DNA from: Chthonomonadaceae bacterium
Lineage (GTDB): Bacteria > Armatimonadota > Chthonomonadetes > Chthonomonadales > Chthonomonadaceae
Reading direction: 5' to 3'
Assembly (NCBI GenBank): GCA_035650735.1
Contig: DASRGZ010000204.1
Coordinates: forward strand, 1 to 48,986
DNA length: 48,986 nt
Shown: one piece after another, positions 643-44,469 of the stretch
How positions within the stretch are numbered: position 1 is the first letter of the stretch
How the letters are laid out: every line of letters begins with the position of its first letter
Position numbers and translations under genes: made by a program
Notes under the pieces: generated by a model
Seen by the model: the letters and a program-made list of their open reading frames with translations, nothing else
What the model was told of the DNA's origin: nothing
Database searches by the model: none

Positions 643-742
643 CCCTCGCTTGAACTAAGGAGAGAGGGACCGCGTTAAATCAGGGTGTAGGGGATAGGGT
701 GTAGGGTGTAGGCCCTCGCTTGAACTAAGGAGAGAGGGACCG
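643..742. repeat. Repeat-spacer-repeat unit: 30-bp exact direct repeat flanking a 40-bp insert
   Basis: ccctcgcttgaactaaggagagagggaccg at 643-672 and 713-742; insert 673-712 contains AGGGTGT heptamers. Confidence 0.9.
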
Positions 743-781
743 GGTTGGTTCTTATTCGCGTTCCTTCGCGGCTAAAGTTGT

Positions 782-2179
782 TTAGGCACTGAGCGTCTTG
801 GCCTTCTCGACGGCCTCATCAATCGTGCCGACCATGTAGAAGGCCTGCTCCGGCAGGTCGTCGTGCTTGCCGTCCACGACTTCCTTGAAGGAGCGGATAG
901 TATCCTTCAGCGGCACATACTTGCCGGGCTGACCGGTGAACTGCTCGGCTACGCGGAACGGCTGCGACAGGAACCGCTCGATGCGGCGGGCGCGGGCCAC
1001 GACCAGCTTGTCCTCGTCCGAGAGCTCGTCAATGCCGAGGATGACGATAATGTCCTGCAACTCTTTGTACCGCTGGAGAATCTGCTGGACGGCGCGGGCC
1101 ACCTCGTAATGCTCTGCGCCGACGACGTTGGGCTGGAGGATGCGCGAGGTCGAGGCCAGCGGGTCCACCGCCGGGTAGATCCCTTTCTCGGAGACGCGCC
1201 GCTCCAGGTAGATATAGGCGTCCAGGTGGGCAAAGGTGGTCGCCGGGGCCGGGTCGGTCGGGTCGTCTGCCGGGACGTAGATGGCCTGCACGGAGGTAAC
1301 CGAGCCGCGCTTGGTGGAGGTGATGCGCTCCTGCAACTGGCCCATCTCCGTTCCGAGCGTGGGCTGATAGCCGACCGCGCTCGGGATGCGGCCCAGCAGC
1401 GCCGACACTTCCGAACCGGCCTGCACGAACCGGAAGATGTTATCCACGAACAGCAGCACGTCCTGCCCTTCGACATCGCGGAAGTATTCGGCGATGGTCA
1501 GGGCAGAGAGGGCGACGCGCAGGCGCGCTCCCGGCGGCTCGTTCATCTGGCCGAAGACCATAGCGGTCTTGGCGATAACTCCCGACTCGTTCATTTCCAG
1601 CCAGAGGTCGTTGCCTTCGCGGGTGCGCTCACCGACGCCCGCAAACACGGAGAAGCCTCCGTGCTCGGTGGCGATGTTGGTGATCAATTCCTGGATAAGA
1701 ACCGTCTTGCCCAGGCCCGCGCCGCCGAAGAGGCCGATCTTACCGCCCTTGAGGAACGGGGTCAGCAGGTCCACGACCTTGAGGCCGGTCTCCAGAACTT
1801 CCTGCGAGGCGCTCTGCTCGGCAAACGTGGGAGCCGGACGATGGATGGGCCAGGACTCCTGAGCGGTAACCGGGCCGCGCTCGTCAATGGGCTGGCCCAG
1901 CAGGTTGAACACGCGACCCAGGGTCTCCTTGCCAACCGGAACGGCGATGGGGCGGCCCGTATCTTCGGCGGGCATACCGCGCACTAGACCGTCGGTGCTG
2001 GACATGGCAATGCAGCGCACGACGTCGTTGCCTAGATGCTGCGCGACCTCTACCGTCAGGTCAATATCGCGGGTGGGGTCTTTGATGACGATGGCGTTGT
2101 TGATAAGAGGCAGTTCGCCGGGCTTAAATCCGATGTCTACGACCGGCCCCTGCACCTGTACAATGGTTCCGCTTGCCAT
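782..2179 (-). CDS. atpD: F1F0 ATP synthase subunit beta
   Basis: P-loop [28 protein letters not shown] and DELSDED motifs; 465 aa. Confidence 0.99.
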
Positions 2180-2344
2180 TCTGTCTGCTCCTTAATCTCG
2201 CCTCAATCGTTGGATCGGCCTCGCGTCGGACGAGCCTGTCCAGAGTGGGGCCTGTGTGGGCGCGGCCCAGCGTCCGTTGGGCGTATGGCGACAAGATAAT
2301 CTGGAAGAACGCTCCAGAGAGATTGTTCCGAATTTCACAATGCT

Positions 2345-2374
2345 ATTTTAGCAGATTTAAGGGGCCTAATGCAA
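2345..2374 (-). promoter_or_regulatory. Putative sigma70 promoter of atpDC
   Basis: Minus strand TTGCAT-18 nt-TAAAAT with extended -10 TG. Confidence 0.5.
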
Positions 2375-2516
2375 GGGGAAAGGCCGGGAACAGGTAACCC
2401 TCTTTTCCCGAGATCGGTGCGTATTAAAGCCTTTGCCGGCCTGCGCAGATGGGCCATGAGCGCCGGGCGACCACAGTGGCGAGTCCGCCTGCCCGCTTTC
2501 CCGGTAAAAATCCCTC

Positions 2517-2545
2517 TTGCATTGCCGGAGCTCTTGTGATAAAAT
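2517..2545 (+). promoter_or_regulatory. sigma70 promoter of 6S RNA
   Basis: TTGCAT(2517-2522)-17 nt-TAAAAT(2540-2545) with extended TGn. Confidence 0.7.
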
Positions 2546-2566
2546 GAGGCAGTTTTGATAGTCCCG

Positions 2567-41906: not shown

Positions 41907-42027
41907 GATTCCTCCAGATGTAGTGAAATTCGGCTGTTCGATTGGCTGAGGCGGTGAAACAGGTGCTCGCAGCCACTTCGTAAATTTCCAATCTCGGAGA
42001 ATGACGAGGGTACTTCGGCGTGGATGT

Positions 42028-42750
42028 TCAGGCGCGGCCATAGACGGGGAGGGAGGCGCCGCTAATGTCGCGGGCCGAGTCGGAGGCCAGGAATGCGATC
42101 ACGTCCGCCAGCGACTCTGGGGCGACCCATTTGCTAAAGTCGGCGTCGGCCATGGCCTGCCGGTTGGCGGGTGTGTCTATCACGCTGGGCAGCACGGCGT
42201 TGACGGTGATGCCATGCTCCAGGAGTTCCGCCGCCATGCTCTCGGTCAGGCGCAGCACGGCGGCTTTGCTGGCGCTGTAGGCGGCTATGCCTGCCGGGCC
42301 GCTCAGGGCTGCCCGTGCCCCGACGTTGATGATTCGGCCTTTGGTTTTTGCCCCAACCATGGCGCGCGCCACGGCGGCGCTGAGCAGGAACGCGGTTTTG
42401 GTGTTGATGGACAGCATGGCATCGAGATCGCCCATATCCATCTCATGCACCGGGCCGCTGAAGGCAAACCCCCCGGCAATGTTGGCCAGAATATCTATCC
42501 GCCCGAAGGTCGCCGCCGCCTGCGCGACAAAGGCGTCCACCGCCGCTTTCTGCGTTAAATCCAGCGCGCCGATGAGAACGGAACCTTGCTGTAACCCCAG
42601 CTCGGCGCTCACTTTCCGCAGCGCCTCTTCCCGCTGATCTATCAGGGCCAGGCGGACGTTTTCGGCGTGTAGGCGGCGCGCGACCGCCCTGCCCAGGCTG
42701 CCGCCCGCTCCGCTGATGATCGCGACCTTACCGCTCAGTTCCGGATACAT
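42028..42750 (-). CDS. Short-chain dehydrogenase/reductase
   Basis: SGAGGSLG, ANIAGG, YSASK, VNAVLPSVIDTPANR motifs. Confidence 0.93.
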   Translation of the reverse strand: MYPELSGKVAIISGAGGSLGRAVARRLHAENVRLALIDQREEALRKVSAELGLQQGSVLIGALDLTQKAAVDAFVAQAAATFGRIDILANIAGGFAFSGPVHEMDMGDLDAMLSINTKTAFLLSAAVARAMVGAKTKGRIINVGARAALSGPAGIAAYSASKAAVLRLTESMAAELLEHGITVNAVLPSVIDTPANRQAMADADFSKWVAPESLADVIAFLASDSARDISGASLPVYGRA

Positions 42751-42847
42751 CGGCTCTTCCTTCCCTTCGTCTCCTTGTACTAGGATGGGAAACGCCCGAC
42801 TGTGTCTATCGAATAGCGCGGCGGCAGGCTCGCCAGGTGAACTCCCA

Positions 42848-43282
42848 CCTAACCCCCCGGCCCCCACTGCCAGGGTTGGCGCTCAACGGTTCGGGCCACT
42901 GCCAGGGTCGGGCCTGCAATAATTCGGCCCTCCGCCTCGCGACACCTTGCGGCCCTACTGCGTTCGCTCCGCTCACAGGGAAGGGGGTAACCCGGCTTCT
43001 GCTCTCCTCCAGACCTCACCCCCTGCCCCTCTCCTTCGTAAGGAGAGGGGAGAGTCGGAGTTGGCTTCTGCTCTCCCTTCTCCCTTGCAGGGAGAAGGGC
43101 CGGGGATGAGGGTAGAACCCAACTTCTCCTCTCCCTTCTCCCGCAGCGCCGGAGGTCGCAAGGTGTCGCGAGGCGGAGGGCCGAATTATTGCAGGCCCGA
43201 CCCTGGCAGTGGCCCGAACCGTTGAGCGCCAACCCTGGCAGCCCATTGCAGGCCCGACCCTAGCAGTGGGAAGGGAGTGAGG
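42848..43282. repeat. Large nested palindromic REP/MITE-like family A composite
   Basis: About 42868-42951 is an inverted copy of about 43156-43240; internal ccctctccttcgtaaggagaggg hairpin; shares modules with 24833-25014. Confidence 0.85.
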
Positions 43283-43305
43283 GCGATTTATGGTTGAGGC
43301 CCTGC

Positions 43306-44286
43306 TTAGAGCCGCCAGTCGGCCAGAAGCTCTTCGGGGGTGACGGTGGCGACGCCGACCTTGCGCACCACGCAGGCCGCCGCATGGTTGGCAACCTCGG
43401 CAGCCTCTTCCACTGAGGCGCCCGCCGCCAGGCCGAGCGTGATGGCGCTGATGACCGTATCGCCCGCACCGGCCACGTCGTAAACCTCGACGGGGTGGGC
43501 CGGAATATGGCGTATGCTGCCGTCGGCGTGCCAGATGGAGAGCCCTTTGGGGCCGCGCGTGACGACGAGCGTTTCGACATGCAGTTGCCGTATCAGCGCG
43601 GCGCCCGCTTCATCCAGCCCGTCTTCGTCGGCAAAGCGCGGGTCGTCGGCGGTGGTCTGCGCTTCCACCTGGTTGAGGGAGACCAGCTTTGCGCCTGCCA
43701 GCGTGCGCACGTTGGGCGGCTTCGGGTTGCTGGTCAGGATGCGGCCCGCCTCGCGGGCGATCTGGACGGCGGCGCGGGCCACCTGCGCCGTCAGAACCCC
43801 CTTGTTGTAGTCGGAAACGACCACCGCCTCCGCCTCGGAGACCTCGCGCCGGAGATGCTCTATCAGGCAGTGGGCCACCGAGGGAGAGATGGGATGGGTC
43901 TGCTCGCGGTCCACGCGCAGCACCTGCTGGCTGTGGGCCACCACGCGCGTCTTGCGAGTGGTAGGGCGCGAGGGGTCGATGACGATGCCGGTCACGTCGG
44001 CGCCGCGCGCTGCCAGGTCGGCCCGCAGGGTTTCGCCAGCCAGGTCCTGGCCGATCACGCCGATGATAGCCACGCGCGCGCCCAGCGCCAGCAGGTTGTT
44101 GACGACGTTGGCCGCACCGCCGGGAACGCAGCGTTCTTTATCCACCTCCACCACCATCACGGGCGACTCGGGCGAGATGCGCGTAGCCCGCCCCAGCAAG
44201 TACTCATCCAGCATCAGGTCGCCCAGCACCAGGATGCGGCGGTCGGCAAAGCTATGCACGAGCCGTTGGTAGTATTCCAGCCTCAT
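43306..44286 (-). CDS. rfaE1: D-glycero-beta-D-manno-heptose-7-phosphate kinase (HldE/RfaE domain I, PfkB family)
   Basis: GDLMLDEY..G...RISPE.PV, GGAANV, TTRKTRV, SDYNKGVL, EVYDVAGAGDTV motifs. Confidence 0.92.
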   Translation of the reverse strand: MRLEYYQRLVHSFADRRILVLGDLMLDEYLLGRATRISPESPVMVVEVDKERCVPGGAANVVNNLLALGARVAIIGVIGQDLAGETLRADLAARGADVTGIVIDPSRPTTRKTRVVAHSQQVLRVDREQTHPISPSVAHCLIEHLRREVSEAEAVVVSDYNKGVLTAQVARAAVQIAREAGRILTSNPKPPNVRTLAGAKLVSLNQVEAQTTADDPRFADEDGLDEAGAALIRQLHVETLVVTRGPKGLSIWHADGSIRHIPAHPVEVYDVAGAGDTVISAITLGLAAGASVEEAAEVANHAAACVVRKVGVATVTPEELLADWRL

Positions 44287-44369
44287 ATCCGGTCTCTTCC
44301 CTCTGCTATCCAGGATACCCCAATTCCGCGGCGAATGCCACCGTCAGCGTGCGTTTTGCCAGGGCCAGG

Positions 44370-44469
44370 CGCTAAAAAATACCCATCTCAGGGGAGCAAC
44401 TCCTCGCAAAACATCGTCTGGCGTTGTCCTGACTGCAACGCTAAAAAATACCCATCTCAGGGGAGCAAC
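44370..44469. repeat. Repeat-spacer-repeat unit: 31-bp exact repeat, 38-bp insert
   Basis: cgctaaaaaatacccatctcaggggagcaac at 44370-44400 and 44439-44469. Confidence 0.92.

Follow-up and report, generated by a model that had tools for sequence, protein, structure and literature searches.

Dispersed insertions in a Chthonomonadaceae genome as probable scars of off-target CRISPR spacer integration

We analyzed a stretch of 48,986 nucleotides (nt) from a Chthonomonadaceae bacterium (contig DASRGZ010000204.1 of assembly GCA_035650735.1, hereafter called the window), in which seven dispersed units each consist of a short insert between two copies of a direct repeat. Such units recur throughout the genome, and we conclude, with a probability of roughly 85%, that they are heritable scars of off-target spacer integration by the Cas1-Cas2 integrases of CRISPR systems. 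The units are insertions with target-site duplication, their geometry is CRISPR-like, some of their inserts are copies of other loci, and their targets share a common motif. The responsible enzyme, the timing and the reason for the high number of events are matters of inference.

The window is contig C204 of an assembly of 6.52 Mb in 224 contigs (63% G+C, 97.6% complete). The genome is designated G000 and its contigs by C-numbers, while G001 belongs to the same genus, G012 and G016 to the same family, and G024 to a sister family. The best named matches of the atpD product encoded in the window are from Armatimonadota, with 88% amino-acid identity to a Chthonomonadaceae metagenome-assembled genome.

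Dispersed units in the window and throughout the genome

All seven units proposed in the first-pass annotation are present in the window, and the sixth is revised here to 34+36+29. They are listed below as first repeat copy + insert + second copy, together with the size classes defined later.

Unit 1, 643-742: 30+40+30; identical repeats 643-672 and 713-742, insert 673-712; the other reading is 34+36+34 with one mismatch
Unit 2, 4511-4608: 31+36+31; identical repeats 4511-4541 and 4578-4608, insert 4542-4577; class 1, nested in unit 3
Unit 3 (outer), 4471-4646: 36-nt repeats 4471-4506 and 4611-4646, differing by five transitions; class 2
Unit 4, 19780-19866: 27+33+27; repeats 19780-19806 and 19840-19866 with one mismatch, insert 19807-19839; class 3, type I-E-like geometry
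Unit 5, 39445-39540: 30+36+30; identical repeats 39445-39474 and 39511-39540, insert 39475-39510; class 1
Unit 6, 39580-39678: 34+36+29; repeat 39580-39613, insert 39614-39649, copy 39650-39678 with a 5-nt gap and one mismatch
Unit 7, 44370-44469: 31+38+31; identical repeats 44370-44400 and 44439-44469, insert 44401-44438; class 1; the other reading is 34+35 with one mismatch

Subtraction of the nested 67 base pairs (bp) of unit 2 from unit 3 leaves an original insert of 37 nt, and the first repeat copy of unit 3 terminates in GTTGCAGC. The outer repeats have accumulated five transitions in 36 nt, while the inner copies are identical, and the inner event is therefore the younger one.

We scanned the whole assembly by seed-and-extend for direct repeats at most 400 bp apart, with the one true CRISPR array removed. 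For repeats of at least 28 nt, 146 pairs lie at a start-to-start distance of 55-80 bp, as compared to 8 pairs at 29-54 bp and 6 at 81-106 bp (equal-width bins, genome-wide). The corresponding numbers are 167, 16 and 10 for repeats of at least 24 nt, and 204, 26 and 16 for those of at least 18 nt. The excess at 55-80 bp is a sharp one. A small excess of pairs at 133-158 bp is caused by a second repeat-element family, whose direct repeats lie about 140 bp apart on several contigs (e.g., C76:48904, C94:2642, C21:3120).

The 167 pairs with repeats of at least 24 nt at a distance of 55-80 bp were taken as the set of isolated units. Sequence clustering sorted them into 134 unrelated groups, and thus the duplicated sequences are not a repeat family, as had been noticed for the window. 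One group consists of 14 copies, in which the unit is lodged in a dispersed element that spread afterwards. Both the window units and the genome-wide pairs have the structure of neo-CRISPR loci, that is, a spacer-length insert between repeat-length direct duplications. The single conserved repeat of a functional CRISPR array, common to all of the units, is absent, and the Rfam CRISPR-DR families have no match within the window.

The units are concentrated in intergenic DNA genome-wide, as they are in the window: 89 of the 134 groups lie wholly outside a crudely called coding map that covers 78.6% of the genome, and 24 lie wholly inside it. A promoter, named among the duplicated host features in the first-pass annotation, is not a rule for the choice of target. 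A -10-like hexamer adjoins 4 of the 89 intergenic units, as compared to 237 of 5000 controls, and a full promoter-like sequence adjoins 2 of the 89, as compared to 38 of 5000.

Insertion with target-site duplication

For each unit, an empty site was built in silico from the left flank, one repeat copy and the right flank, and was searched against the genome, a match being required to span both junctions with at most one gap. Matches were obtained for 38 units, mostly in dispersed multicopy elements, and some of them are self matches or weak ones. Relative to its paralogue on C62, the unit on C65 is a clean 61-bp insertion, with the left flank identical over 74 nt and the right flank over about 90 nt. 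Similarly, the unit on C59 is a clean 69-bp insertion relative to C19. The pair C72 and C206 was not counted, because only one flank is in common. Since the paralogous empty sites hold a single copy of the duplicated sequence, the units are insertions accompanied by target-site duplication.

The search for empty sites in other species was uninformative, as the shared gene order stops before units 5 and 6. At the unit 1 locus, the intergenic gap in G001 is about 66 bp shorter, and the intergenic DNA is too diverged for a convincing alignment of an empty site.

Sources of the inserts

Where do the inserts come from? Matches elsewhere in the genome exist for 47 of the 167 inserts, and the majority of these are repeat families. 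A full-length source at a single other locus was found for 10 of the 134 groups. Nine of these inserts are 100% identical to the source. The tenth, that of unit 2 in the window, differs in one of its 36 positions from its source on the cas-bearing contig, C93:29016-29051, which has CCG on its 5′ side. Altogether, CCG is found directly 5′ of four of the seven class 1 sources, and of a fifth if the boundary is shifted by one base. CCG would thus be the candidate protospacer-adjacent motif (PAM). In an exact search against viral contigs, the inserts of units 5 and 7 had 0 matches each.

Four of the ten sources are located on contig C15 (43.5 kb), at positions 2024, 4215, 17136 and 32865. C15 encodes dnaE, pyruvate dehydrogenase E1, fba and a BsoBI restriction-modification pair, and its housekeeping genes rule it out as a plasmid or phage donor. 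As C15 is chromosomal, it may be a donor hot spot for spacer capture, rather than a plasmid. For the 79 native spacers, the genome contains no match of at least 22 nt, which would be expected if only expressed spacers endanger the cell.

The inserts are unique sequences of 32-39 nt, with neither shared ends nor terminal inverted repeats. These properties, together with duplications of 28-38 bp, do not fit a transposon, an insertion sequence or a casposon. Transposases and casposases are not known to duplicate more than about 15 bp of their target.

An origin of the units by slippage, by partial duplication in tandem or by faulty assembly has nothing specific in its favor. Metagenome contigs assembled with 31-mers break at unit 7, as expected for a 31-nt repeat. 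By contrast, the inserts originate at distant loci and have exact ends, the length distributions are sharp, and relatives under the same scan largely lack such units. Moreover, contigs of the metagenome runs X1, X2 and X3, from three studies, bridge units 5 and 6 (39445-39678) unchanged, with 0-1 differences over kilobases; one of the runs is possibly the source sample of the window itself. These independent contigs show that the units are not an assembly artifact, a doubt that the first-pass annotation had itself raised, and we consider the probability of this whole group of explanations to be negligible.

Three size classes

The repeat lengths and periods of the 134 group representatives fall into three classes.

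Class 1: repeat 28-33 nt; mean period 67.05 bp, range 64-70; about 30+37; n = 66
Class 2: repeat 34-40 nt; mean period 73.2 bp; about 37+37; n = 30
Class 3: repeat 26-31 nt; mean period 60.8 bp, 8 of 10 at 61; about 28+33; n = 10
Outside the class bins: n = 28

The observed repeats are extended by chance matches at their borders. This puts the true duplications at about 30, 36-37 and 28-29 nt, which improves on the sizes of about 30, 36 and 27 nt read from the window. The two repeat copies are identical in 50 of the 66 class 1 units.

Several loci record more than one event. Neo-arrays with two spacers are found at C224:43547, C109:6231 and C126:9900, and nested units at C10:5060 and C171:5688, in addition to window position 4471. 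At C198:74296-74502, a 32+34 unit of class 1 abuts a 38+34 unit of class 2, with one border in common and 0-1 mismatches. The common border indicates that a single cut site served two events.

The resident CRISPR system and the class 1 targets

The true CRISPR array is located on C93 and contains 80 repeats of 30 nt with periods of 65-67; its spacers include 34 of 35 nt, 24 of 36 nt and 14 of 37 nt. The array adjoins cas2, cas1, type III-A csm genes, cas4, cas3, and type I-B cas5 and cas7. The cas1 product matches the type I-B model TIGR03641 with 431 bits, and profile searches of the 97.6%-complete assembly found no second cas1 or cas2. In geometry, class 1, with its 30-nt duplication, matches this array and its adaptation module, and arrays that match classes 2 and 3 occur only in relatives. 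The suggestion of up to three adaptation modules agrees with the three geometries, but not with the single cas1/cas2 pair.

How are the class 1 targets chosen? The class 1 repeats agree with the native repeat at a mean of 12.2 of 30 positions, as compared to 10.6 for random 30-mers (p ~1e-12), and have no resemblance to the type I-E and 37-nt repeats of a relative. We constructed a position weight matrix from the 66 class 1 targets alone, with their orientation determined by expectation-maximization and without the use of the native repeat. The resulting motif contains 5.9 bits, as compared to 2.66 ± 0.28 in control sets. With this motif, the native repeat reaches 9.05 bits at offset 0 but has poor scores when shifted by 1 or 2, and only 0.02% of random genomic 30-mers score above the native repeat. 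The strongest columns are A12 (70%) and T19 (50%). In the native repeat, read so as to end in ATTGAAAC, A12 lies within AACCA (11-15) and T19 within GTGGA (18-22). The flanks of the class 1 targets contain no leader-like sequence, and no more than a weak GG (-3/-2) and CC (+2/+3) was seen there.

The enzyme responsible for class 1 is thus most likely the resident type I-B Cas1-Cas2 of C93, with Cas4. The empty paralogues, the ten copied inserts, the match of class 1 to the array and the in-register motif support the first-pass proposal that a CRISPR integrase inserted spacer-sized fragments and duplicated repeat-sized targets.

Some further features of this locus and its repeat were observed. 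An istA/istB pair of the IS21 family lies at the far end of the array (C93:337-2393 and 8250-9428 being the coordinates given for the IS21 pair and cas1). The Pfam model matches the C93 Cas1 (392 amino acids) in two pieces with about 60 residues between them, and the Cas1 reading frames of relatives are 401-452 amino acids long, suggesting that an insertion in Cas1 is common in the lineage. Outside the array, lone copies of the native repeat with 1-5 mismatches occur at C3:8091, C19:48197, C89:7863, C121:514, C152:3580, C162:11575 and C166:40668, and behind the one on C152 lies another, degenerate copy.

Classes 2 and 3

The only feature common to the class 2 repeats is the end motif GTTGCAAC (6.7 bits, as compared to 4.0 ± 0.35 in controls), which resembles the native repeat terminus ATTGAAAC; class 1 has the same bias in a weaker form. 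Overall, the class 2 repeats bear no likeness to the 37-nt type I-C repeat of a relative (p = 0.53). In G024, an array of 37-nt repeats with periods of 71-76 adjoins type I-C cas7-cas4-cas1-cas2. Class 2 could be ascribed either to a separate, older module or to the enzyme of class 1 acting in a second register. In the latter case, the resident type I-B integrase would make one cut at a ATTGAAAC-like site and the other at a default distance, without the mid-repeat anchors, thereby producing duplications of about 36-38 bp.

Several observations point toward one enzyme with two registers. The implied insert lengths are alike (about 36.7 nt in class 2 and 37.0 nt in class 1, from the periods and true repeats of about 36.5 and 30 nt). 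A resemblance to GTTGCAAC and ATTGAAAC is seen at the repeat ends of classes 1 and 2 (p ~1e-8 each) and is missing in class 3. In addition, the assembly has no second cas1/cas2, the type I-C cas1 is found in 0 of 18 same-family genomes, and the class 1 and class 2 units that share a border on C198 both have 34-nt inserts. However, the class 2 repeat copies are twice as diverged as those of class 1 (0.0225 and 0.0115 per site, respectively). G001, which has no cas1 in its assembly, contains two units in 199 kb, both of class 2 and none of class 1. Furthermore, true arrays of 37-nt repeats ending in ATTGAAAC adjoin a type I-C module within the same taxonomic order, and in the Haloarcula type I-B system widening the motif gap by at least 4 nt abolished integration rather than lengthening the duplication (PMC4872114). 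On balance, we regard the second register as a tentative explanation that is rather less probable than its negation.

In G001, the repeat of a 37+36+37 unit at C18 (L181:907) has the appearance of a genuine CRISPR repeat of 37 nt: its stem is palindromic and it ends in GGTTGAAAC.

The class 3 repeats contain a CCCC..GTGGGG stem, as in type I-E, and yield a motif of 10.75 bits, as compared to 7.46 ± 0.74 in controls. They resemble the type I-E repeat of G012 (p = 0.03, n = 10). Type I-E arrays with a period of 61 are present in G012 and G002, and a type I-E cas1 scores above the cut-off in 6 of 31 genomes (the relatives and G000 itself), but not in G000 or G001. Searches of G000 for type I-E genes (TIGR03638 for cas1; PF09344 and PF08798 for cas7e/cas6e) gave nothing above the cut-off, the sensitivity of the two Pfam searches being doubtful, as their controls were positive in Thermus and not in E. 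coli.

Some of the units, chiefly those of class 3, might instead be decayed genuine type I-E mini-arrays, orphaned by the loss of their cas genes. The neo-arrays at C109:6231 and C126:9900 would fit this origin, as each contains three copies of a type I-E-like repeat with the same stem and a period of 61, resembling the G012 repeat, and the seven lone native repeats outside the array are also in its favor. Conversely, the class 3 repeats are mutually different and form ten separate groups, and for the class 3 unit at C65:114 a perfect empty paralogue exists within a dispersed element. Three inserts of class 3 geometry (C109:6293, C135:1248 and C174:14153) are exact copies of chromosomal sequence. 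We therefore consider an orphan-array origin improbable. As these inserts are exact copies of the present-day chromosome, the off-target enzyme of class 3 must either have acted recently or be missing from the assembly.

Proposed mechanism of off-target integration

In the proposed mechanism, the 3′ ends of a captured fragment, which measures about 36-38 bp (or 32-33 bp in the units of type I-E-like geometry), would both be joined to a non-CRISPR site, one to each strand, with the two joins offset by one repeat length. Gap repair would then copy the intervening 30 bp (or about 37, or 28-29 bp). In class 1, the integrase would dock where a target imitates AACC and GTGG, the mid-repeat motifs of the native repeat, with its A12 and T19. 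The duplicated sequences are unlike the native repeat and would not be processed into guide RNA, so that the scars would be inert and would persist mainly where no gene is broken.

An unknown non-Cas integrase or mobile element that makes repeat-sized duplications around short inserts would account for the two of three geometries without a cognate cas1 in the assembly, and for a density far above that in relatives that do carry cas1. However, the inserts are copies of arbitrary loci with no common sequence, the three geometries equal those of CRISPR arrays in relatives, and the class 1 motif is in register with the native repeat. Such an agent is therefore very improbable.

Off-target integration by CRISPR integrases has to be reconciled with several observations that weigh against it. 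For classes 2 and 3, neither a matching cas1 nor a matching array is present in the G000 assembly, and for type I-C the cas1 is also absent from the same-family genomes mentioned above. In the genome search, 124 of the 134 inserts have no identified source, and the evidence for a CCG PAM is based on seven sources only. The likeness of the targets to the native repeat, 12.2 versus 10.6 of 30 positions, is weak at any single site. Moreover, the class 1 period exceeds the native one by 1.3 bp (67.05 and 65.71 bp, respectively; p = 2e-9). The predicted empty alleles were found as paralogues within the same genome, but none in the metagenome runs X1-X3, and none of the joints listed skips a unit (four runs compared with window positions 29000-48986, with X7 giving fragments only).

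The relatives add to these points. In a scan for repeats of at least 24 nt at 55-80 bp, the 400-kb samples of G016 and G012 yielded 0 and 1 pairs, respectively, and 199 kb of G001 yielded 2, as compared to about 10 per 400 kb expected at the G000 density. G012 has large type I-B and type I-E arrays, yet it has this single unit in 400 kb, and the presence of the enzyme therefore does not explain the density of scars.

Other features of the window

Unit 1 is located between atpD (782-2179, minus strand) and a neighboring gene of the ATP synthase cluster, and its insert is built of a G-rich heptamer motif that is dispersed in the genome. The unit 4 repeats include the hairpin GCCCAC..GTGGGC, and the unit directly follows a copy of a dispersed repeat element. 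Unit 5 begins immediately past a promoter-like TTGACA-N17-TATTAT sequence. The repeat of unit 7 contains the left arm of a stem-loop and lies between the UDP-glucose dehydrogenase and pfkB kinase genes. Two further repeat pairs were recorded:

23475-23563: candidate older class 1 unit; 22-nt core repeat, 82% identity, spacing 67; AAAAC and GAAAC at the ends of the copies
43188-43269: 25+32+25 pair within a dispersed multicopy repeat element; either an integration event or an internal repetition of the element

The dispersed repeat family occupies window positions 19700-19780, ~29000-29600, ~34300 and 42840-43300. Copies of its 30-nt core number 83 and are spread over 65 contigs, and the depth of metagenome contigs spikes 30- to 60-fold there. 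The family is a frequent insertion target, and it is one of its sub-families that carries the class 2 unit present in 14 copies. Rfam matches in the window are a 6S RNA at 2566-2752 (plus strand, 66.7 bits) and a tRNA at 40738-40809 (plus strand).

Comparison with known systems

Neo-CRISPR loci were reportedly described by Nivala, Shipman and Church in 2018 (Nat Microbiol 3:310), with overexpressed type I-E Cas1-Cas2 in E. coli. Off-target, or non-canonical, spacer integration by the overexpressed E. coli enzyme creates neo-CRISPR loci (bioRxiv 10.1101/148544, PMC6698737, PMC7054753). As in G000, a spacer-sized insert is accompanied by a repeat-sized duplication of a non-CRISPR target, the targets are repeat-like, and the loci can grow into small arrays. 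In contrast, the G000 events are natural and fixed rather than induced, and their main class is of type I-B geometry (30 + ~37 bp) rather than type I-E (28+33). Furthermore, at least 134 independent groups exist in one genome, in three geometries and with nested and border-sharing events. The evidence for natural off-target integration has been described as circumstantial and limited to two other species, and its natural frequency unclear (bioRxiv 10.1101/148544).

In vitro, Pyrococcus furiosus Cas1-Cas2 uses non-CRISPR sites that are paired across the two strands at a distance of 30-31 bp and carry repeat-like bases (PMC6698737). This system shares with G000 the 30-nt repeat and the repeat-like bases at the borders (G/C) and in the center, including A12. 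Its targets were plasmids in vitro, whereas those in G000 are heritable changes of the chromosome, ten of which have a known source DNA.

In the Haloarcula hispanica type I-B system, AACCC and GTGGG place the two cuts, each about 10 bp from a motif, and altered motif spacing leads to duplications of 29-33 bp (PMC4872114). AACCA (11-15) and GTGGA (18-22) of the G000 native repeat occupy the positions of these two motifs, of which the off-target sites retain A12 and T19, and the spread of 28-33 nt in the G000 duplications parallels that in Haloarcula. The Haloarcula experiments employed engineered repeats beside a leader, whereas the G000 sites have no leader-like flank.

No natural genome-wide catalogue of off-target integrations was found among the searched papers that cite the 2018 report, as judged from titles and the beginnings of abstracts, or by a broader term search. 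The mechanism is already known, and the new elements are its natural scale, the type I-B specificity map, and the additional second and third geometries.

Implications

The genome provides more than 130 independent natural events with known targets, ten of them with a known donor. Together they constitute an in vivo specificity map of a type I-B integrase (A12, T19, and G/C at the borders), while the intergenic bias measures the mutational cost of adaptation, and the neo-arrays with a second acquired spacer are direct examples of further growth. CRISPR-finding software would report such units as mini-arrays. The scar density is about ten times that in relatives carrying the same kind of system, and the reason for this is a testable question.

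A broader proposal, which we put forward with clear reservation as the less probable outcome, is that one resident and naturally promiscuous type I-B Cas1-Cas2 of this soil bacterium has left more than 100 heritable chromosomal records. Some of these would be self-derived and most of unknown source, made in two registers (30 and ~37 bp), with some scars becoming multi-spacer neo-arrays. If a single promiscuous enzyme was indeed responsible, then this genome would hold a natural record of the birth of CRISPR arrays and of the cost of adaptation to the host.

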